64,000 nt of DNA, taken from positions 1,002 to 65,001 of the forward strand of contig CAWFGH010000011.1 in assembly GCA_963815255.1 (NCBI GenBank), read 5' to 3'. This document shows, piece after piece, positions 1 through 9,708 of the stretch. The notes beneath the pieces were generated by a model, which had not been told where the DNA came from, searched no databases, and was given only the letters and a program-made list of their open reading frames with translations. The position numbers and the translations under genes are program-made. Origin of the DNA: an uncultured delta proteobacterium. Its GTDB lineage: Bacteria > Desulfobacterota > Binatia > Binatales > Binataceae. The first letter of the stretch is position 1. Every line of letters begins with the position of its first letter.

Positions 1-842
1 CGCAGGTCGATCACCGGCGACTTCTCCCGGAGTTCCCAAATGACCAGCGCCACAAACGAGATGAGCGCGATCACCGATAGCGTGACGATGAAGTGAGAAG
101 CAAACCAGTCGTCCTCCTGACCTTTGTCGAGCACCACCTGCAGACAGCCGATGCCGAGCGCGATCAGACCGATTCCGATGTAGTCGATGTAAGGCCGATG
201 ATGTGAGCGGCGCTGTTGCTCCAATTGCTCTGTAAGATACTCCGGATCCTTGACGAAATGGTTGGTAAGGAACAGGGACATGATTCCGATCGGCACGTTG
301 ATGTAGAAGATCCAGCGCCAACTGTAGTTATCGGTTATCCAGCCGCCGAGCGTGGGTCCGATCGAGGGCGCCAATACCACAGCCATCCCGTAGATGGCGA
401 AGGCCATTCCCAGCCTTGCGGGTGGAAAGGTGTCGGCGAGGATCGCCTGTTCGCTGGGCTGCAGGCCGCCGCCGCCCGCGCCCTGCAAGACGCGGAATAA
501 GATCAGCGTTCCGAGGCTCGGCGCCAACCCGCACAGAAATGAGCTCACCGTGAAGAGCGCCACGCAGGTCATATAGAAGCGCTTGCGCCCCATAACTTCG
601 GACGCCCACGCGCCAAGGGGAATGATGATGCCGTTGGAGACCAGATAGGAGGTCAGTATCCAGGTGGCTTCATCGGCGGTAGCCGACAAGTTGCCGGCAA
701 TATGCGGCAGCGCGACATTGGCGATGCTGCTGTCGAGCGCCTCCATGAAGGTGGCGATCGTTACGGTAAATGCGATCGGCCAGGGATTGAGCGCATACTT
801 GCGGGCCGGCACGGGCTGGCCCTCGGCTGGAGCCGCGCTCAC
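1..842 (-). CDS. DHA2-family (EmrB/QacA-type) MFS efflux permease, N-terminal part; the gene continues past the left window edge
   Basis: Own translation of the minus strand from GTG(842): VSAAPAEGQPVPARKYALNPWPIAFTVTIATFMEALDSSIANVALPHIAGNLSATADEATWILTSYLVSNG...FRVLQGAGGGGLQPSEQAIL...GWITDNYSWRWIFYINVPIG. This is a typical DHA2 N-terminus. The start overlaps the stop of the HlyD gene (GTGA). It is absent from the ORF track only because it has no stop inside the window. Confidence 0.88.
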   Translation of the reverse strand, partial: MSAAPAEGQPVPARKYALNPWPIAFTVTIATFMEALDSSIANVALPHIAGNLSATADEATWILTSYLVSNGIIIPLGAWASEVMGRKRFYMTCVALFTVSSFLCGLAPSLGTLILFRVLQGAGGGGLQPSEQAILADTFPPARLGMAFAIYGMAVVLAPSIGPTLGGWITDNYSWRWIFYINVPIGIMSLFLTNHFVKDPEYLTEQLEQQRRSHHRPYIDYIGIGLIALGIGCLQVVLDKGQEDDWFASHFIVTLSVIALISFVALVIWELREKSPVIDL

Positions 843-1984
843 TTGAGCCACACCGTGGGCTCGACCGACATGCCCGGTACCAGACGATGGTTGATATTCT
901 GGCCTGGTGCGAGATCGATGCGAACTGGAATCCGCTGCACCACTTTGACGTAATTGCCGGTCGCGTTTTCGGGCGGGAGCAGGCTGAAGCGTTCGCCCGA
1001 AGCTGAGCCCAAGCCATCCACATGCCCTTTGAAAGTGCGGCCCAGAGCATCGACGTGGATGTCTACCGGTTGGCCTGGCCGCATCCGGCGCAGCTGGTTT
1101 TCCTTGAAATTGGCGGTGACCCAGACATCGTCGAGCGGCACCACTGCCAGGAGTGATTCGCCGGGCTGCACGCGCTGCCCCGGCTCGACGCTTTTCTTGC
1201 CGATCACCCCACTCATCGGTGCGGTGATCTTGGTGTAACCGTAATTGAGCAAGGCCTGATCGAGCTCGGCCTGAGCCATCGCAACTGCCGCTTCGCGGGA
1301 ACCAATGTTCTTCAGCGCCGCGTTGGCGCCGGCTCGATCGGCATCGACCGTCGCCCGCGCCACCTTCGCGATACGCAAGCTCTCCTGGTAGTCCTCTCGC
1401 CGGGCGGCGCCTTGGGCCGCAAGGATAGCCAGTCGAGGCACATCATATTCAGCCTTTGCTCTGGTCGCTTCGTCCTGACTGACTTTGTTGAGCGCTGTTT
1501 GGTAGTCCGCGTTAGCCGATTCCACCTGCGCTTTGGTCTGAGCCAGCCTGGCGCGAGCACCTTCGACCGCGACTACGTAGTCGTCTGGGTCGATTTCAGC
1601 AAGAAGCTGTCCTGCGTGGACCGGCTGAGTATCGATAACATAGACGTGTGCGATGGTACCGTTGATTCGGGAGCTGACCGCGATGATATGTCCGTCGACC
1701 TGCGCATCGTCGGTGTCTTCATAAGAGGACAGATAGCTCCACCCTGGAACCGCGGCCGCCGCCCCGACGAAGAGGAGCAAGATCACTAAAATGAGATTTC
1801 GGCGGCGACGAGATCGTGACGATGAGGATGTTTCTATTTCTGGCGCTGCTGGACGATCAGTGCTATCGCGATCCGCAATGCCAGGCTGGCGGTCGTCTCC
1901 GTTGTGGAGCGGTTCGACGGGGCCGTCACGATCCTGGTTCCGATTCGGCGTCTCACCAGGCGCTGAAGGAGATTCGCTGCTCAA
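839..1984 (-). CDS. HlyD-family membrane-fusion (periplasmic adaptor) protein, EmrA-like
   Basis: ORF 839..2146. Single N-terminal TM (LILVILLLFVGAAAAV), YEDTDDAQVDGHIIAVSSRINGTI lipoyl-like motif, long coiled coil, C-terminal beta-barrel region. Start set to TTG 1984 because GGAGG lies 8 nt upstream and this avoids a 130-nt overlap with the OMF gene. TTG 2146 is the longest alternative. Confidence 0.85.
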   Translation of the reverse strand: MSSESPSAPGETPNRNQDRDGPVEPLHNGDDRQPGIADRDSTDRPAAPEIETSSSSRSRRRRNLILVILLLFVGAAAAVPGWSYLSSYEDTDDAQVDGHIIAVSSRINGTIAHVYVIDTQPVHAGQLLAEIDPDDYVVAVEGARARLAQTKAQVESANADYQTALNKVSQDEATRAKAEYDVPRLAILAAQGAARREDYQESLRIAKVARATVDADRAGANAALKNIGSREAAVAMAQAELDQALLNYGYTKITAPMSGVIGKKSVEPGQRVQPGESLLAVVPLDDVWVTANFKENQLRRMRPGQPVDIHVDALGRTFKGHVDGLGSASGERFSLLPPENATGNYVKVVQRIPVRIDLAPGQNINHRLVPGMSVEPTVWLK

Positions 1985-2016
1985 GTTACATACCTCCGGC
2001 GTGACACTTTTGCCGG

Positions 2017-3819
2017 TCAGACTTTTGGCTGATTGGGTCGACTGAGTCGGCCGTTCAAGCCGCTCGATGATGTGCTCGGCGACGCCTGCCCGCGCGCCGT
2101 TGGAACCGGCTCCAAAGCCGGGCGGAGTTGCGCGTCGATGTCCCAACCGCCGCCGAGCGCTTTGTAGATAGCGATCAAATAATCGATCAGTTGCTGATCG
2201 CTCTGCGCCAGTGCGTCCTGCGCCGCGTAGAGCGAGCGCTGCGCCTCAAGGACGTCTAGATAATTGGCATAGCCCTCCTCGTAGCGTTCGCGCGCGAGCA
2301 TTTCGGAGCGCTTGAAGTCCTGCGCGGAATCCGCCAGCGCCCTGTGCCTCGTTCGCTCCTTGGCATAGCCGACAAGCGCGTCTTCGACCTCGGCGAGCGC
2401 GTTCAGGACGGTCTTTTGATAAATGAGCAGCGCCTGTTCCTCCTGGGCGTTACGCGCCTCGATATAGGCCCGAATCCGGCCGCCCTCGAAGATTGGCCAG
2501 CGCATCGTTGGACCGACCGTCCACATCCGGCTTGCTCCGGCAAAAAAATCGCTGGTGCTGATCGATTCGAGCCCGGCCGCGCCAGTGATGTAAAACTTGG
2601 GATACAGGTCTGCCGTCGCTACGCCGACGCGCGCCGTGGCCGCCGCAACCTCGCGCTCGGCGCCGCGAATATCGGGACGGCGCCGGAGAAGATCCGAAGG
2701 CAGGCCGGCGGGAATCCGCACGGCGATCGCGCCGGGATCCGCGATACCCGGAATCGGCGCCATATCTGAGAGCCGCGCGTTGAGTGCGTCGGGCTCGCGA
2801 CCAAGCAACACGCTGATGCGATGGTCGGTTTGCGCAAGCTCGCTCTCGAGTTCCGGCACCTGCGCCTGCGTAGTCTCCAACAGAGATCTCGCCTGTATGA
2901 CGTCGAGTTCCGGCGCAAAGCCCATCCGGAATCGCGCTTGGGTCAGTCCCAGCGAATCGTTTTCATCGCGCACGTTTTCTCTGGTGATCAGGAGCCGGCG
3001 TTGGAGCGTCCGGACGGCAACGTAGTCGCGTGCGGCCTCGGCCAGCAGCGTTACCCGTACGTCGCGGGCGTTCTCGATCGACGCGGCAAGCTCGGCCTGC
3101 GAGGCTTCCACTCCACGCCGGAGGCCGCCGAAGACGTCCAGTTCCCAACTCGCGTCGAAGCCGGCTTCATACATGTCCTCTTCTCTTGGAATGGCCTGGG
3201 GAAACTCCCCGAAGGGTGTGTTGGCGCTGTACCGCTGACGAGTGTACGAACCATCCAAACCGATACTCGGGAGGAGCGCGCCGCGGCTCGATGCGAGGTA
3301 AGCGCGCTCTTCGCGAATCCGGGCAATTGCTATTTTTTCGTCGAGGTTGGAGGCGAGCGCCTGCTCGACTATCTCGTTGAGAGCGGAATCGTCGAAGGAT
3401 TGCCACCATTGCGCGAGATCGCTTTTGGCACCTTGGCCGGCTCCCACTTCGGACTTCTCATCGACGCCGCTCCACAGCGCCGGCAGCTTCATGAATGGAC
3501 GCTCGTAGTTGGGGCCGACCAGGCATCCCGTCGCCGTCACGCTCATGATTGCGGTCAGCGCGAGAATCAAGCCGCGTCGTGTACCTCTTGCCTTGCGAGA
3601 ACGTGCAGACCGGATGCCAGAATCGAAACAAAAGCCGGCGGCAATCCCGCCGTGCTGACCACATGTGACTCCGCGGGGGAAGGGAGTCGGCCGTCGGGCT
3701 CCTCGGGGGAAAGGAGTTGGCCTATGGGTCGACGACGGGATTGTGCCGGCAAATTTGGTTGCGTCATATCTCTGTCTCCGCACAGCGGGCCGCGCGGCGG
3801 ATGCAGCTCGTCCAGGCAT
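2017..3819 (-). CDS. Efflux transporter outer-membrane factor lipoprotein, NodT family
   Basis: ORF 2017..3996. Lipoprotein signal RRGLILALTAIMSVTATG|C followed by VGPNYERP, the two OEP repeats and ...AIYKALGGGW. Start is uncertain. ATG 3819 has an AAGGAA RBS but puts about 98 aa before the lipobox. TTG 3570 gives a short signal peptide without a charged n-region. Confidence 0.85.
   Translation of the reverse strand: MPGRAASAARPAVRRQRYDATKFAGTIPSSTHRPTPFPRGARRPTPFPRGVTCGQHGGIAAGFCFDSGIRSARSRKARGTRRGLILALTAIMSVTATGCLVGPNYERPFMKLPALWSGVDEKSEVGAGQGAKSDLAQWWQSFDDSALNEIVEQALASNLDEKIAIARIREERAYLASSRGALLPSIGLDGSYTRQRYSANTPFGEFPQAIPREEDMYEAGFDASWELDVFGGLRRGVEASQAELAASIENARDVRVTLLAEAARDYVAVRTLQRRLLITRENVRDENDSLGLTQARFRMGFAPELDVIQARSLLETTQAQVPELESELAQTDHRISVLLGREPDALNARLSDMAPIPGIADPGAIAVRIPAGLPSDLLRRRPDIRGAEREVAAATARVGVATADLYPKFYITGAAGLESISTSDFFAGASRMWTVGPTMRWPIFEGGRIRAYIEARNAQEEQALLIYQKTVLNALAEVEDALVGYAKERTRHRALADSAQDFKRSEMLARERYEEGYANYLDVLEAQRSLYAAQDALAQSDQQLIDYLIAIYKALGGGWDIDAQLRPALEPVPTARGQASPSTSSSGLNGRLSRPNQPKV
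3667..3730 (-). repeat. Tandem 30-nt direct repeat (3671-3700 / 3701-3730) forming twin stem-loops in the leader or 5' region of the OMF gene
   Basis: Units CCGCGGGGGAAGGGAGTCGGCCGTCGGGCT and CCTCGGGGGAAAGGAGTTGGCCTATGGGTC. Stems GACTCC/GGAGTC (3667-3672/3683-3688) and CTCCT/AGGAG (3699-3703/3712-3716). On the operon sense strand the loops carry a C5 run. Confidence 0.6.
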
Positions 3820-4007
3820 TTTCTCTTTCCTTATCGGCGGCATGCTGACCTGCGCCGATTTTCTGTCCGCCTCGCTGATCCAGGCTCCACGCAACCCGCG
3901 AGAAGACTTCTTCCGCAACGGTTCTCCGGATTTGGCTTGAAGATGGAAATCGCATGCTGCGGCTTTGGCGCGGTTGATGACAAAGTATATAGTCAAACAA
4001 AACCAGT

Positions 4008-4049
4008 ACCAGAGGCATTCTTTATACTGGTATAAAAAGTACCAACTTG
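4008..4049 (-). promoter_or_regulatory. Shared promoter/operator element, copy 1, in the divergent intergenic region between the efflux operon and the MmyB-like regulator
   Basis: The reverse strand reads CAAGTTGGTACTTTTTATACCAGTATAAAGAATGCCTCTGGT. The 26-nt core matches copy 2 at 23/26 positions. It contains the near-palindrome TTTATACTGGTATAAA, giving a TATAAA hexamer on both strands. It ends 11 nt before the regulator ATG. Confidence 0.6.
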
Positions 4050-4059
4050 AGGTTCAGCG

Positions 4060-4995
4060 ATGACCCACGACGAGATCAGACGGCACGAGTTGAGCGATTT
4101 TCTGCGCACCCGGCGGGCGCGCATCGCGCCCGCCGGCATCGGCTTTCCGGCGGCACATCGGCGGCGAACCCCCGGTTTGCGGCGCGAGGAAGTAGCTCAG
4201 TTGGCCGGGATGAGCGCGACCTGGTACACGTGGCTCGAGCAGCGACGTCCGATCAGCGTGTCTCGCGGAATGTTGGACAACCTGGCTCGTGTGTTACAGC
4301 TTAATCCCGTCGAGCGGATACAGTTGTTTCGGCTCGCGCGTCGCGAGCCTGCTATCGATTCCACGCCGCAGCGCGAAACGGTCAGCCCGCGGTTCCAGCG
4401 AATGCTCGATCAGTCGGACATCATGCCCTCATTTGTTATGGGGCGCCGATGGGACGTGCTCGGATGGAATCGCGCAGCTCGTGCCTTCTTCCTGGATTTC
4501 GAGCAAGTACCACCGGACGAACGGAATTTGGTTTGGCTCCTCTTCACCCACCCGGCGCTCCGCTCTTTGGTCGTCGAATGGTCGACACGAGCCCAGGACA
4601 CGCTCGCCAGGTTCCGTGCCGATTACGGCCGTTGTGCCGGCGACTCGCATTTTGTCCAGCTTGTGGACCGGCTGAACGCCGTCAGTCCGGAATTCGCCCA
4701 ATGGTGGCCGCGCCATGACGTACTGCCGATGAGCGAGGGCTGCGCGCAATACAATCATCCGCTGGTGGGACGCATGGTCGTCGATCACATGACGTTCTCG
4801 GTGGTCGATAATCCGGGATTAAGAGTCATTGCCTTGCTGCCCGAGGCAAGTTCGATAAAAAAGATGCGGAAAATTATCGCGGCTTTCCGCGGTGGCGCAG
4901 GAGCTCGTGGTGCATTGGCGGCGGCGAGCAGGGCGAAGCCCGCTCCGATGAGAACGAGAACCACCTCCTCCCTGCTGCCGACGACGAGCGGGTAA
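4060..4995 (+). CDS. MmyB-like transcriptional regulator (XRE-type HTH plus MmyB-like ligand-binding domain)
   Basis: N-terminus ELSDFLRTRRARIAPAGIGFPAAHRRRTPGLRREEVAQLAGMSATWYTWLEQRRPISVSRGMLDNLARVLQLNPVERIQLFRLAR is the hallmark MmyB-family HTH. GAGG lies 7 nt upstream of the ATG. The last ~40 aa are Arg/Ala/Thr-rich and overlap repeat copy A. Confidence 0.85.
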   Translation: MTHDEIRRHELSDFLRTRRARIAPAGIGFPAAHRRRTPGLRREEVAQLAGMSATWYTWLEQRRPISVSRGMLDNLARVLQLNPVERIQLFRLARREPAIDSTPQRETVSPRFQRMLDQSDIMPSFVMGRRWDVLGWNRAARAFFLDFEQVPPDERNLVWLLFTHPALRSLVVEWSTRAQDTLARFRADYGRCAGDSHFVQLVDRLNAVSPEFAQWWPRHDVLPMSEGCAQYNHPLVGRMVVDHMTFSVVDNPGLRVIALLPEASSIKKMRKIIAAFRGGAGARGALAAASRAKPAPMRTRTTSSLLPTTSG

Positions 4996-5423
4996 ACCTC
5001 AGAGCGACCTTACGTCGCAAGCCAGGGGCAAATCCAGTTCCCCTGTGATAGACATTCGGCATCTCGACACCACCAGAGTGGGTTTTTTCTATACGTTGTC
5101 GCGCGGCCGGTTGAGGCCGAAAACGGCGCTTCCAGATCGAGGGGCTTTAGGAGGCGTGCCGTGAAACCTCGCAAAACACTCATCGATTGTATCGGACCGG
5201 GTGGACGGGAGCCGGCGAAAAGCCAAACTCCACCGTCGAGGAGTTCAAGCCTGCCCGTGGACCGCTGGGCGTGATCGTCTCAGGTCGCCGGAGAATCCTA
5301 ACGGTCGTAAACTCAGTGCAAGTAGCTTCCATACTAGTATAAACAATGCCTCTAGTGTCGCGTTCGCTTCTGTATATATTCATGTTCATCGGTTGCCCCG
5401 ACATGCATTGGCCTGATGGGCAT
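4940..5423 (+). repeat. Segmental direct repeat, copy A (5' block 4940-5068, A-specific spacer 5069-5299, 3' block 5300-5423)
   Basis: By-eye alignment with 7212-7523. For example, GATGAGAACGAGAACCACCTCCTCCCTGCTGCCGACGACGAGCGGGTAAACCTCAGAGCGACCTTACGTCGC matches GATGAGAATGAGGACCACCTCCTCCCTGGTGCCGACGAGGAACGGTAAATCTCAGAGCGTCCTTACGTCGC. The 124-nt 3' blocks are colinear and end in ...GACATGCA(T/C)TGGCCTGA(T)GGGCAT. Confidence 0.8.
5318..5356 (+). promoter_or_regulatory. Shared promoter/operator element, copy 2, upstream of the DUF1329-like gene
   Basis: GCAAGTAGCTTCCATACTAGTATAAACAATGCCTCTAGT. Same orientation relative to its downstream gene as copies 1 and 3. It ends 118 nt upstream of ATG 5474. 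Confidence 0.6.
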
Positions 5424-5473
5424 TTGCGGATGAGCATGCGGGGACGCCGCATTCGCAAAGGAGGACCGAAGCC

Positions 5474-6857
5474 ATGCGTGTCATGAAATATTCCGACGGA
5501 TGGACCCGACGCCACTTCATGGAGCAAGCCGCAAGAGGCGTTCTAGCCGCGGGCGTGATTGCTCCCCTGTGGGAACGTGATCGGGCGAAATGGCTCGCTC
5601 GAGGCCGCCTACCCGCCCGAACTTCTCTCTATCGAGGCCTACACCAAAGGCAAGCTCAAGCCGGGGGACGTGCTAAGCGCCGAGAACGTCGACATCGTCA
5701 AAGACCTGCTCGACCCGGCCGCATATTGGCAAATCAAGCATGACGGACGTTTAGTGGACCTCGCGCCGACCGAGACCGACGTTACCAAGCTCACGCCGGT
5801 GCCCTATCTCCAAGCGACGCTGCGCAACCGCGGCAAGCACAAGATCTTCCCCGACGGCAATTGCTACACGCTCGATGGCAAGGATTGGATCGGCGGCAAC
5901 CCCTTCCCTGAGCCCAAGACGGCACAGGAAGTTCTGATGGGCAATACCTTGAGCTGGGGCAAGCACGATACGCAGGCTCACCCCATACTCGACTGGGACA
6001 CCGATGCCGATGGCAACGTCGACTATCAGTACGCCTCTTACTTGGTTGAATGGCAGACAGTCGGCCGCCTGGTCTTCGATCCCCATCCGTATATGCCGGG
6101 ACGCGAGAACCAGCTTCGCATTTTTGGCGGCATCGTGGTGGCCCCCGGAGACGTCAACGGCACCGGCACCCTGCAGGTCTGGAGTTATGACCAGCACCAG
6201 CTTCCCGGCTATTATGTCTACCAGCCGACCACCAAACGCGTACGCACCTATCCTGTCGATCAGCGTTTCGAGCCTCAATTCCCAGGCAACACGTTTTTCG
6301 CTACCGAGTACTGGATGGCGGGGGATCCTCTTTTGACGTGGAGCAATTTCAAACTGGTCGGCAAGGGCCCCGTGCTAACTTGCGCACACCACTGTGCCGA
6401 CCTCGACCAGCCGAACTGGATCCACAAGACCTGCGGCGGCAAGAGCGGTGTGAAGTACTGGCGCACGCGCATGGAGCTGGTGCCTGAGGCTTACGTGGTC
6501 GAGATGGAACCGACCATGTATCCTCGCGCGCCGATCGGCAAGAAAAGGATCTGGTACCACGCATCAACGCTATGCCCGCTCACCATGATCAGCTATGACC
6601 GTCAGGGCAAGATGTGGAAGCAGTGGGAAGGCGGCTTTGACTACTACGAGCGCAAGCCCGGGATGAAGTGGATAGAGGGAACGCCGGACCATTTCTGGAG
6701 CTGGACTCACGTGCACGCGCACGATCTGCAGAGCAACCGTATGTCGCGCTTCTACTATGCGCAGACGGTCCCAGGCGGTTACCACGCTACTGTCGACGAC
6801 GCTAGACTGTTTGGGGACCTCTGCTCGATGGAAGCGCTGGAACGCTTGGGCCGGTAG
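5474..6857 (+). CDS. DUF1329-like (LolA-like fold) envelope protein with a Tat-type signal peptide; interrupted by a +1 frameshift near 5571
   Basis: Frame 1 (5474-) encodes MRVMKYSDGWTRRHFMEQAARGVLAAGVIAPLW, with a twin-arginine motif and an h-region. The 432-aa body is ORF 5559..6857 (...SLEAAYPPELLSIEAYTKGKLKPGDVL...GGNPFPEPKTAQEV...). The body frame is closed by TGA at 5556-5558. Deleting one G of the GGG run 5571-5573 joins the two parts. The family call is from memory of DUF1329 features and the adjacent DUF1302-like gene. Confidence 0.6.
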
Positions 6858-6883
6858 TTCCCCGGCAGCGCAATTGTAACGCC

Positions 6884-6926
6884 ACCGCCGGCTCTGCTCA
6901 CGCAGCGCCGGCGGTTTTCCTTTTCC
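6884..6926 (+). terminator. Rho-independent terminator downstream of the DUF1329-like gene
   Basis: 9-bp GC stem ACCGCCGGC (6884-6892) / GCCGGCGGT (6907-6915), 14-nt loop, followed by TTTTCCTTTTCC. Confidence 0.7.
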
Positions 6927-6977
6927 AGCCCCTCCTTTGAGCGACACAGAAAGGTCGCGCACAGTACCCGATCCCGA

Positions 6978-7229
6978 TTCGGGAGCTCTCTTGCTGAGAT
7001 CGCTGCACGCGAGGGGCTCGCCGTGCGCTATTTGGGTCGCTTGTTCCGCTTGGCTTTCCTGGCGCCGGATATCGTTGAGGCCATTGTGGAGGGCCGGCAG
7101 CCGATCAGTCTTACTGCAGAAGCAGTTACGGCCGGCGCAGATACTCAGCTTCATGCGTGGGCTGCCGCGGTGCACGGTGGGGATGGAGGCCAGCGGCGGA
7201 GCGCAGTTGTGGCTCCTCCGCTCGGATGA
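6978..7229 (+). pseudogene. C-terminal fragment of a recombinase-family (serine recombinase/resolvase-type) protein; no catalytic domain present
   Basis: The frame of ORF 7023..7229, extended upstream, reads FGSSLAEIAAREGLAVRYLGRLFRLAFLAPDIVEAIVEGRQPISLTAEAVTAGADTQLHAW. The LRLAFLAPDIVEAI.EGRQP..LTAE..L motif is the conserved C-terminal HTH tail I recall from recombinase-family proteins. There is nothing recombinase-like upstream of it. Confidence 0.5.
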
Positions 7230-7523
7230 GAATGAGGACCACCTCCTCCCTGGTGCCGACGAGGAACGGTAAATCTCAGAGCGTCCTTACGTCGCGGGAA
7301 TAGATCCGACTCCCATCTGCTGAACATTCGGCACTTCGAGCGCCGTCGAGCAAATCACGCCACATTCGTACTGCCGGCCGTGGTGGTTTCGGTTCGTTCT
7401 CACGGTCGAAAGCTCTGTGCCAGTTAGTTTTAATACTAGGATAAAAAATCCTCTAGCGCCGCCTTCGCTTCTTTTGTATTCACGTTCATCGGTTGAGCCC
7501 GACATGCACTGGCCTGAGGGCAT
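7212..7523 (+). repeat. Segmental direct repeat, copy B (5' block 7212-7340, short spacer, 3' block 7400-7523)
   Basis: See copy A. Copy B lies directly after the recombinase fragment and runs into the start codon region of the DUF1302-like gene. Confidence 0.8.
7419..7457 (+). promoter_or_regulatory. Shared promoter/operator element, copy 3, upstream of the DUF1302-like gene
   Basis: GCCAGTTAGTTTTAATACTAGGATAAAAAATCCTCTAGC. The core matches copy 2 at 22/26 positions with one gap. It ends 73 nt upstream of ATG 7530. Confidence 0.55.
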
Positions 7524-7529
7524 CTACTG

Positions 7530-9665
7530 ATGAAACGCAAATTTCTGGAGAGCAGCAGCAACATGAACGCAGATTCGAAACGCAGAAAGCGCCTGTGGCT
7601 ATTTGGAGCGGTAGCGACAATGGGACTGATGCTAAGCGGTCAGACGCGAGCATACGCCCAGCAGGGAATTGCGCAAAACCTGGAGGATAGTTTTGAACTC
7701 CACGGCTATCTGGAGAATCAAGAAATCATCCGCAGCGAAAATTATGCAAGCGATTATCACGTGGCGTCGATCCGCAATCGCATCGACTTGCAGCCTTCGG
7801 GGCAGATAATCAAGGACGTCACCTTGCCCACCGTGATGGGTGTGCCTCTGGGAACTGGTCTGTCGGTCAGCTACTTCGCCGAAATCCGGCCCGGCTACGA
7901 AGGCGTATATGATCTCGTGACCGACCGCTTCGGAAATCATACCACCGGATTTTCGGGCATCGGAGTCTCGGAATTTCAGGGAACCGGGCAGACCGCCGGT
8001 TTGGCATTGCTCAGGGCCTTCGGCTACGATCCGCGACGCTTCAAGGGTGTAGTGGCCCGTACCCTCCTGTTCCCGGAGCCGGTTTCCCAGAACATCAAGT
8101 TCATCAACAACATCAACGGTGTTCCGACCGAATGCTGGAATTGCATAAACGTCGAGCAAACGGTTAGCAACCTGCGTTTCGAACGCGATGACAGTAACCT
8201 GATCTACTACCCTCTGCGCGAAGCATACCTTGATTTCCGCTGGGACTTCTTCGGGTCCAACCTGCTTCGTCTGGGCAAACAGCAGGTGGTATGGGGCAAG
8301 GCCGATTTTTTTCGCCTGCAGGACATCATCAATCCGGTGGATTTCGCGCAGCACTTCTTTATCGAGCCGTTCGAAGATACCCGAATCCCACAACTGGCGG
8401 CGTGGTTGCAGCACCGTTTCGGCGACGTTCTGGGCTTTCAGGAGGTTGCGGGCAACGTGGTATGGAATTTTGACGAGTTCAATCCAGTCGGATTGGGTGT
8501 GGGCGGTCAGCCTTGGGCGGTCAACTTCGGCGATCAAAAGCGCGCGTTCGCCTTCTCCAACGGTCTGTTTGACGCCGGAGAATGCGGCGGGAGCAAAACT
8601 CCTGGCGTCTGCAACCCCAACCATGTCAATTTCGGCCTGTATCGTGAGCGCGTGCCGGACTGGCGGCTGCGCAACAGCGGCGTCGGCATGAAGTGGGACT
8701 TCGAGCTTCCGCATCCGGCGATCCGCTTCGCGCTGACCGATTGGTGGGGTATCGCACAAACGCCCATCTTCGTAGAGAGTCAGCTTCAGGTGCTGGGCGA
8801 TCCGGCTCATCCGGGAGCGATTTCCACCGGCAGCAACTTTGCGGCTTCTGGCGTAAATTGCTCCAAGCTTGCCACCATCAGTTCGGGCTTTCCCGGTTTT
8901 TATGGACCCGGCGGCGGCGGTGCGGCAATCATCGCCACCAACGCGCGCAGCGTACATCTGGCCAAAGGCGTTAACCCGCACACCTTCCTTAACGATTGCA
9001 CCTTCGGCGCCGGCACTGAGATTCGCTATCACAAAGACAATACTCTGGGACTGTCAGCGGACTATTTCGAGCCCTTCACCGGAGTGATTATACGCGTCGA
9101 GTCGTCGTGGACGCACAACGCGCTGCTCAACGACACCGATTCGCTCGACTGGACTACCAACAACGACATCCTGCAATACGTAGTTGGCATCGACCGTCCG
9201 CACTTCATCAGATTCCTCAACCCGGACGACAGCTTCTTCACCAGCTTTCAGGTATTCGAGACTTATTATCCGGGTGCGCATAGCTCCAATGGCGGCAAGG
9301 ACGGACTGGTCACCGGCGTAAACGATTTTACTTTTACTGCGTTCACCCAGACCCACTACTATCGTGACCAGATCATCCCGCTCATCTTTGCGACCTTCGG
9401 CACCGAGGGCACCGACTCGACCATCGGCGGCAACACGGAGTGGCTGATCACCAACCATTGGTCGGCGAGTATCGGCTTCGATGCGTTCCTGGGCAAGTCA
9501 CATCAGCACAACGTCGGGTCGAACGCAGTCTTCCAGGCCGGCCACACAACGCCTCAGGACGCGCCATACAGCGAAACCATCTTCGGTCCTGCGCACATGC
9601 AGGCCGGCGGCGCTCAGCGCAACAAGGATGACGAGTTCTGGACCAGGATTCGCTACCGCTTCTAG
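7530..9665 (+). CDS. DUF1302-like outer-membrane beta-barrel protein
   Basis: 711 aa. Sec signal ...LWLFGAVATMGLMLSGQTRAYAQQ, FELHGYLENQEIIRSENY start typical of DUF1302, alternating beta-strand pattern throughout, and a C-terminal ...WTRIRYRF with terminal Phe (OMP signature). GAGGG RBS lies 9 nt upstream. Confidence 0.65.
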   Translation: MKRKFLESSSNMNADSKRRKRLWLFGAVATMGLMLSGQTRAYAQQGIAQNLEDSFELHGYLENQEIIRSENYASDYHVASIRNRIDLQPSGQIIKDVTLPTVMGVPLGTGLSVSYFAEIRPGYEGVYDLVTDRFGNHTTGFSGIGVSEFQGTGQTAGLALLRAFGYDPRRFKGVVARTLLFPEPVSQNIKFINNINGVPTECWNCINVEQTVSNLRFERDDSNLIYYPLREAYLDFRWDFFGSNLLRLGKQQVVWGKADFFRLQDIINPVDFAQHFFIEPFEDTRIPQLAAWLQHRFGDVLGFQEVAGNVVWNFDEFNPVGLGVGGQPWAVNFGDQKRAFAFSNGLFDAGECGGSKTPGVCNPNHVNFGLYRERVPDWRLRNSGVGMKWDFELPHPAIRFALTDWWGIAQTPIFVESQLQVLGDPAHPGAISTGSNFAASGVNCSKLATISSGFPGFYGPGGGGAAIIATNARSVHLAKGVNPHTFLNDCTFGAGTEIRYHKDNTLGLSADYFEPFTGVIIRVESSWTHNALLNDTDSLDWTTNNDILQYVVGIDRPHFIRFLNPDDSFFTSFQVFETYYPGAHSSNGGKDGLVTGVNDFTFTAFTQTHYYRDQIIPLIFATFGTEGTDSTIGGNTEWLITNHWSASIGFDAFLGKSHQHNVGSNAVFQAGHTTPQDAPYSETIFGPAHMQAGGAQRNKDDEFWTRIRYRF

Positions 9666-9708
9666 GCAACCGGCAGAAGCGCCCACCCCGCTCAGTCGCG
9701 GACGCAGG

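Follow-up and report, generated by a model that had tools for sequence, protein, structure and literature searches.

The question raised by this locus is whether a DUF1302 outer-membrane β-barrel, a DUF1329 protein and a tripartite efflux pump, encoded on either side of one regulator gene, form a single envelope-spanning machine, as had been proposed from an earlier reading of the letters alone (the original prediction). The genes, six in all, make up the first 9.7 kb of a 64-kb stretch of DNA from an uncultured delta proteobacterium (contig CAWFGH010000011.1; hereafter the window). Searches with Pfam and NCBIfam models upheld all six family assignments, namely EmrB-type MFS permease, EmrA/HlyD-type adaptor, NodT-family outer-membrane factor (OMF), MmyB-like regulator, DUF1329 and DUF1302. 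We propose, with a probability of about 0.6, that the region is a regulon of the MmyB-like regulator comprising three separate units and not one machine, the five other genes probably sharing this one ligand-sensing regulator.

The MmyB-like regulator (4060-4995, plus strand) comprises an HTH_31 domain (42 bits versus a cut-off of 27) and an MLTR_LBD domain (171 bits versus 26). The ligand domain of MmyB-like regulators is PAS-like and is thought to bind fatty-acid-like ligands. A perfect 16-bp palindrome, TTTATACTGGTATAAA, lies at 4021-4036, 24 nt before the regulator start, and is a candidate MmyB operator. Operator-like sites occur on the plus strand at 5331-5343 (ATACTAGTATAAA; 131 nt before the DUF1329 start) and, with one mismatch, at 7433-7445 (ATACTAGGATAAA; before DUF1302). 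Allowing at most one mismatch, the pattern occurs at just these three positions in the 64 kb, with none expected by chance. The sequence ATACTGGTAT recurs 17-27 nt before the start of the regulator open reading frame (ORF) in the related loci L017, L032, L033 and L034, the regulators of which are 59-90% identical to that of the window. In L095 (regulator 91-96% identical) the palindrome precedes the regulator by 13-29 nt, according to which start codon is assumed. The exact site is also present before DUF1302 in L012, L017 and L024, and the site recurs in the L095 counterpart of copy A, one of the two upstream repeats described below; about 100 nt 3' of the site are conserved too. The shared upstream element of the original prediction is thus confirmed as a palindrome conserved before MmyB orthologues (down to 59% identity), DUF1302 and DUF1329. 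Conservation before orthologues and targets is what supports the candidate operator; regulator binding and ligand response are predictions. Comparative evidence is good for this site as an MmyB operator subject to autoregulation, its putative targets being DUF1302 and, in this locus, DUF1329.

The gene neighbourhood of the regulator was compared among the orthologous loci. In L017, the closest relative genome, EmrB (95% identity), EmrA (87%) and NodT (77%) are encoded on the minus strand and are followed by MmyB (90%) and DUF1302 (92%), i.e. the pump/MmyB/DUF1302 layout of the window without DUF1329. L024 and L012 have the regulator (83% and 81%, respectively) followed by DUF1302 (82%), and the 4-kb contig that encodes the barrel P0122 (92%) has MmyB directly before DUF1302. 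The adjacency of the pump is kept in the window, in L017 and probably in L036 (NodT fragment before an 87% identical regulator), and in L032 (regulator 66%, EmrB 49%) and L039, which have more distant homologues of the regulator, a DHA2 MFS gene is oriented divergently from the regulator gene. The possibility, raised along with the original prediction, that the adjacency is unique to this genome and due to rearrangement is therefore borne out for DUF1329, found here in this lineage only, and not for the MmyB-DUF1302 and pump links, which are conserved beyond it.

Two of these loci have features of their own. In L024 (8522-17523), the genes MmyB, DUF1302, TetR, MFP and AcrB-type RND follow one another on the same strand, no OMF gene lies close to them, and about 300 nt of homology to the nodT-mmyB spacer are kept before the regulator though the EmrAB-NodT pump is absent. 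In L095 (3250-5541 and 9137-11447), a large serine recombinase and a DUF2924 gene stand in the place of the pump, next to a regulator gene split by frame changes and a spacer of the copy A type, found downstream of the window's regulator (see below); this locus looks like a mobile-element hotspot.

The DUF1302 barrel (7530-9665, plus strand) has a signal peptide (...TRAYA/QQ) and, as an outer-membrane barrel does, ends in a phenylalanine (...IRYRF). Its match to PF06980 (57.5 bits versus a cut-off of 23.2) covers only profile positions 145-524 of 541, and the full-length homologues listed all carry PF06980. The start may alternatively be the second methionine, at 7563, as in the L017 ORF. The AlphaFold2 (AF2) model (predicted local distance difference test, pLDDT, 76.5) is a large barrel made mostly of strands, without a long TolC-type periplasmic helical domain. 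Foldseek related it to porins, OccAB2 and AlgE with a probability of 1.0 but with query-based TM-scores (TMq) of at most 0.34, a generic likeness only. A 2026 paper names the same structural neighbours for DUF1302 and no solved structure, and our search of PDB sequences returned no relative of either the DUF1329 or the DUF1302 protein.

When species genomes were scanned with the DUF1302 protein as query, 13 loci were obtained, 12 of them titled uncultured delta proteobacterium or Candidatus Binataceae and one (L012) Bryobacteraceae. Ten of the 13 are a canonical cluster with the order aminotransferase/CT subunits, then BNR, MMPL, DUF1302, a HEAT-repeat protein, DUF1329 (485 aa), a 129-aa protein and an alpha/beta hydrolase; in the other three (L017, L024 and L012) the barrel comes directly after the MmyB regulator. 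The closest canonical-cluster relatives of the window barrel (73-86% identity) are encoded in Binataceae-type metagenome-assembled genomes (MAGs), beside a Sec-type DUF1329. Since the same contig holds both L017 and the canonical L019, and the same MAG both L024 and L020, the MmyB-linked and the canonical barrels are paralogues. In a maximum-likelihood tree the five MmyB-linked barrels form one group (support 91/90) among the cluster copies, which a single origin of the MmyB-linked barrels would fit best. No match to the BNR, MMPL, HEAT-repeat and 485-aa DUF1329 proteins of L007 was found in the 64-kb window by tblastn. The cluster itself is highly conserved from BNR to hydrolase in L006-L010 and L013-L023 (e.g. 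L007, 6292-16498). At most cluster loci with intact genes, MMPL and DUF1329 are 93-97% conserved and the barrel 76-86%, which hints that the surface-exposed barrel may evolve faster. A 138-aa ORF that follows DUF1302 in the window was compared with the 138-aa gene that ends the canonical cluster and proved unrelated to it.

The DUF1329 gene has another history. Its closest relatives (71-85% identity) stand alone, in settings unrelated to one another. In L001-L003 the gene follows a GAF/sigma-54 activator amid guanylate-cyclase/STAND genes, in L004 it lies amid fragments of guanylate-cyclase genes, in L005 it adjoins an amidase, and in L109, where the likeness to the window ends at the coding region, it follows a DoxX gene. 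The flanks of L001-L004 have repeated genes or fragments of the guanylate-cyclase/AAA_16 kind, with TPR as well in L001-L003. The window's DUF1329 and DUF1302 appear to derive from different DUF1302/DUF1329 lineages, because the former is only 24% identical to the 485-aa DUF1329 of the canonical clusters, has solo genes as its close relatives, and has more distant relatives (those of L025 and L027) whose partner barrels share only a patch of about 50 residues with the window barrel. The two are thus not a co-inherited pair, and their description as cognate partners had to be given up: they come from different lineages, and DUF1329 is an insertion specific to this lineage, flanked by mobile-element scars and absent in L017. 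Another DUF1329-family gene (476 aa, 132 bits) lies divergent from a 67% identical regulator homologue in L031 (91-2645), followed by the gene of a 551-aa secreted protein of no family. This protein was considered as a hidden DUF1302 and rejected (hhalign probability 0.1), and the ATAC..GTAT palindrome was not found in the L031 locus.

The DUF1329 gene spans 5474-6857 on the plus strand and, with its frame intact, would encode a LolA-like protein with a twin-arginine translocation (Tat) signal. The body ORF (5559-6857, 432 aa) matches PF07044 with 162.4 bits (cut-off 23.1) over profile positions 2-351 of 368, so that this ORF and that of the barrel are both placed in the families first assigned to them, above the cut-offs. 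The true start is the ATG at 5474, which opens MRVMKYSDGWTRRHFMEQAARGVLAAGVIAPLW, a twin-arginine signal (TRRHF and a hydrophobic stretch). In this assembly the signal is out of frame with the body owing to one extra base near 5574-5577, and the gene, at 1384 nt, is one base longer than 460 codons and a stop. Nearly all of the 120 best homologues are about 460 aa long, the 11 N-termini inspected among them have the same Tat signal (one in truncated form), and the alignment shows hardly any variation at RR and F (RRxF). Logan contigs from four soil metagenomes of different studies (X1-X4) all have one base less, missing at 5577 in X2, X3 and X4 and at 5574 in X1, which leaves the frame intact and gives ...APLWELIGRNGSLEAAY..., a sequence that fits the family. 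Because homologues and four metagenomes keep the frame open, the frameshift is confined to this assembly; it would be a consensus error or a private mutation and not a feature of the gene. A programmed frameshift is ruled out by the same plain open frame.

The extra base at 5577 lies beside GATC (5579-5582) and outside any homopolymer; if the source assembly was made from nanopore reads, a methylation-linked consensus error is plausible there. Split genes also occur in related long-contig MAG loci (L013, L021, L023 and L024). The whole subfamily of about 460 aa (P0001-P0120) has the conserved twin-arginine signal GWTRRHFL..., and a conserved Tat signal implies that the LolA-fold periplasmic protein is exported folded. 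The N-terminus of the canonical 485-aa Binataceae DUF1329 has no twin-arginine motif and looks Sec-type. The AF2 model of the body ORF (pLDDT 94.6) has a LolA-like fold, and its best Foldseek matches are LolA3 (9tp6; target-based TM-score, TMt, 0.79), 3bk5 and the DUF1329 structure 4z48 (TMt 0.75). Right after the DUF1329 stop, on the plus strand, a terminator-like GC hairpin (6884-6925; −31.4 kcal/mol, z = −4.4) is followed by UUUUCCUUUU, and DUF1329 and DUF1302, 670 nt apart, are separate transcription units. As close DUF1329 relatives follow a sigma-54 activator, a sigma-54 promoter was looked for by eye before DUF1329, and no convincing GG-N10-GC spacing was seen. Consensus scanning for sigma-70 promoters and terminators likewise yielded nothing informative near the three units.

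On the other side of the regulator, the pump genes lie on the minus strand. The EmrB-type DHA2 permease gene (3-851) runs past the window start, so that only its 5' part is present, and matches MFS_1 and the NCBIfam model TIGR00711 for EmrB/DHA2 (313 bits, cut-off 230). The EmrA/HlyD-type periplasmic adaptor (839-2146) matches HlyD_D23 and HlyD_3, both above the Pfam cut-offs, as well as Biotin_lipoyl_2; its best NCBIfam model is EmrA/EmrK (TIGR00998), at 250 bits under the cut-off of 391. The N-terminal extension of the adaptor ORF is of low complexity, and the family matches begin at about residue 108-116. The NodT-family OMF lipoprotein (2017-3576) matches TIGR01845 (402 bits, cut-off 210) and, in two stretches, OEP; the mechanically called ORF reaches 3996, and the family match starts from its residue 150, around a ...TATGC lipobox-like site. 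The genes nodT, emrA and emrB overlap or abut and form one operon, which encodes the EmrB permease, the HlyD/EmrA adaptor and the OMF of a tripartite DHA2-MFS pump. EmrAB-type tripartite pumps are self-contained efflux systems, and as this one has its own OMF, no further outer-membrane part is needed.

How DUF1329 came to lie between the regulator and the barrel can be followed from the DNA around it. The gene sits between two copies of a direct repeat on the plus strand, copy A (4925-5433) and copy B (7200-7534). Copy A has an extra stretch (about 5068-5298) that is missing from copy B, and is also found in L095 (94%); copy B has more IS110 sequence than copy A. The core identities are 79% between A and B, 79% between B and the single L017 spacer, and 73% between A and that spacer. 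The repeat is not recent, because A and B are as diverged as B and L017, and it is unlikely to stem from a simple tandem duplication of late date, given that the two copies resemble each other no more closely than copy B resembles the L017 spacer. The repeat would be better explained by an exchange between two copies of the locus that had already diverged.

Between DUF1329 and copy B, and reaching into the latter, lie two plus-strand remnants of mobile elements. The remnant of a large serine recombinase C-terminus (6936-7125) aligns over 68 aa, at 50% identity (E 1e-12), with the C-terminal part of the L095 Resolvase+Recombinase ORF. That of an IS110-family transposase N-terminus (7100-7272) has tblastn matches to 2445 plasmid records; where these carry an annotation, it is that of an IS110 family transposase. 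Pfam gave nothing useful on these two short remnants; the matches came from tblastn against plasmids and L095. Left of copy B, near-identical populations differ: in the window the recombinase remnant passes at about 7125 into a short remnant of IS110, and the metagenome contig L011 (98% identical to 7096-9680), which has a longer IS110 piece, has more of the IS110 gene instead left of 7127 (L011 1-65), as apparently does the X4 population (contig 30). The C-terminal tail of the regulator, ...APMRTRTTSSLLPTTSG (about 17 codons, 4940-4991), is lineage-specific, the same DNA in another frame being part of the IS110 transposase N-terminus (RSDENENHLLPAADDER); the matches of more distant regulator homologues end near residue 282-285.

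The arrangement is no artefact of this assembly. Contig sets from four soil metagenomes (about 97-99% identity) span the region from the regulator 3' end to DUF1302 and cover the junctions of the regulator with copy A, copy A with DUF1329, DUF1329 with the recombinase remnant, the remnant with copy B, and copy B with DUF1302. Misassembly downstream of the regulator is unlikely, as short contigs of four metagenomes cross every junction checked; these contigs being independent, the arrangement exists in nature, in several soils. Four libraries, two of them recorded as soil metatranscriptomes and the other two taken for RNA by guess, have low-depth contigs that map to the pump genes, DUF1329 and DUF1302, which suggests that these genes may be transcribed and says nothing on co-expression.

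From these lines of evidence, we propose the following course of events. The regulator would bind the palindrome before its own gene and so control itself, and it probably also controls the divergent nodT-emrA-emrB operon, i.e. a self-sufficient tripartite DHA2-MFS efflux pump. Related sites head what would be two further single-gene units of the regulon, DUF1302 and DUF1329. The DUF1302 gene would be a duplicate of the canonical-cluster barrel, put behind the regulator in an ancestor of the Binataceae-type group, and the Tat-exported, LolA-fold DUF1329 a later insertion confined to this lineage. A hydrophobic or amphiphilic ligand would then induce efflux and, with it, a route across the outer membrane and a carrier in the periplasm for compounds of this kind; co-regulation, this substrate class and any DUF1329-DUF1302 contact are parts of the proposal that we infer. 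Several points weigh against the regulon. Control of the pump by the regulator is its weakest link, the palindrome being more than 400 nt from the NodT coding start. The pump adjacency is lost in L024 and L095. Efflux pumps are numerous in these genomes (in L017, two more ACR_tran genes are found within 10 kb), and some of the adjacency could be due to chance. In addition, both copies of the upstream segment have kept the operator-like site over about 21% divergence, and more distant Tat-type DUF1329 genes (46-52% identity) directly follow a DUF1302 gene in L025 and L027; the DUF1329 and DUF1302 proteins of the window may therefore be in working contact after all.

A single coupled system in which DUF1329, DUF1302 and NodT/EmrA/EmrB span the envelope, e.g. 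one joining uptake or surface handling to efflux, could account for the grouping of the genes around one regulator with a common upstream site and for the pump-MmyB-DUF1302 layout kept in L017. It could also draw on the MmyB-DUF1302 unit of L024 adjoining another pump (TetR-MFP-RND), and on the neighbourhood of an MmyB homologue (67%) and another DUF1329-family gene in L031. We nevertheless find such a system very unlikely, for the pump is complete, with the three canonical parts and an OMF of its own, the orthologous loci (L017 and the P0122 contig) have no DUF1329, the pump is absent from L024 and L095, the modelled barrel has no long periplasmic helical domain of the TolC type, and each of the three units is transcribed separately, DUF1329 being followed by a terminator-like hairpin. 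The single envelope-spanning system of the original prediction is thus not supported, in view of the completeness of the pump and the loss of its adjacency in L024 and L095, and a new kind of envelope-spanning machine is not established by this locus. Genes brought to the side of the regulator by mobile elements, DUF1302 earlier than DUF1329, with no common function and with a DUF1329 pseudogene decaying in this genome, would explain the serine-recombinase and IS110 remnants at the junction, the recombinase element that replaces the pump in L095, the frameshift of the window's DUF1329 and the many contexts of its close relatives. This account is unlikely, given that the site and about 100 nt after it are kept before DUF1302 in four lineages, and in both window copies, despite about 21% divergence elsewhere; that four independent metagenomes have DUF1329 in an unbroken frame and its body ORF is modelled as folded with a pLDDT of 94.6; and that DUF1329 and DUF1302 are hit by contigs from libraries recorded as soil RNA, two of these four being RNA by guess only.

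The remaining alternative overlaps with the regulon and holds that a Tat-type DUF1329 was recruited to the orphan DUF1302, under MmyB, to form a new working pair. The DUF1302-DUF1329 order of the more distant Tat-type genes speaks for it, and so do a published multimer model of a Pseudomonas DUF1302-DUF1329 pair (interface predicted TM-score, ipTM, 0.84; PMC13499233), the operator-region copy that the inserted DUF1329 has of its own, and the presence of the arrangement in several soils. Yet the barrels that do pair with Tat-type DUF1329 have little in common with the window barrel beyond the patch of about 50 residues, the partner of the window barrel's relatives is a Sec-type DUF1329 with 24% identity to that of the window, and the gene order is reversed, with separate transcripts; we therefore regard a new pair as quite unlikely. 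Just as tentatively, an MmyB sensor of a hydrophobic ligand might control the pump, the orphan barrel and DUF1329 together, with the last two, which stem from different DUF1302/DUF1329 lineages and were joined here through mobile-element recombination, possibly working as a carrier-barrel pair, an idea that we find rather improbable. The regulon of three separate units remains the reading that we prefer.

DUF1302 and DUF1329 proteins are widespread in envelopes and have fitness phenotypes but no assigned biochemistry. In this locus, a barrel copy is detached from MMPL and BNR and placed under a ligand-sensing regulator with a candidate operator, and a non-cognate DUF1329 has been added later. 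The ligand of the regulator, if found, would point to the substrate class of DUF1302/DUF1329, and the mixed pair is a natural test of whether barrel and carrier must be co-evolved. Should it work, DUF1302/DUF1329 parts would be interchangeable modules, with a ligand-inducible handle on their function.

Similarly to EmrAB-TolC pumps, the window's pump has an EmrB-subfamily permease and an EmrA-like adaptor, together with a NodT OMF; it differs from them in that the OMF is encoded within the operon and that the adaptor scores below the EmrA subfamily cut-off. The E. coli emrRAB regulator EmrR is MarR-type, whereas that of the window is MmyB-like. The latter resembles other MmyB-like regulators in its two domains (HTH_31 and MLTR_LBD), in being divergent from a target operon and in the palindrome before its own gene. 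In the literature searched we found no MmyB-like regulator tied to DUF1302 or DUF1329, and the accessible parts of the literature on MmyB-like regulators and efflux make no evident link to these families.

The canonical DUF1302/DUF1329 systems, such as Shewanella Sama_1588-1591, P. putida PP_0765/0766 and PP_2018/2019, and Castellaniella AmeABCD, have been proposed to act in the export of envelope components, the use of esters and fatty acids or growth on monoterpenes, their function being unassigned, and the regulators reported near such clusters are of the LuxR or AraC types. An MmyB-DUF1302 unit beside an EmrAB-NodT pump differs from the LuxR/AraC neighbours and RND/BNR partners of the literature searched, and to that extent the claim of an undescribed arrangement is supported. 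What the window shares with the canonical DUF1302/DUF1329/BNR (COG4447)/RND-MMPL (COG1033) clusters are the same two Pfam families, one represented by a barrel that has a signal peptide and the other by a periplasmic protein of LolA fold. It differs from them in having no BNR or MMPL gene within its 64 kb, a regulator of the MmyB type in place of LuxR or AraC, a Tat-type DUF1329 that is not the ancestral partner of the barrel, and a reversed gene order with separate transcripts.

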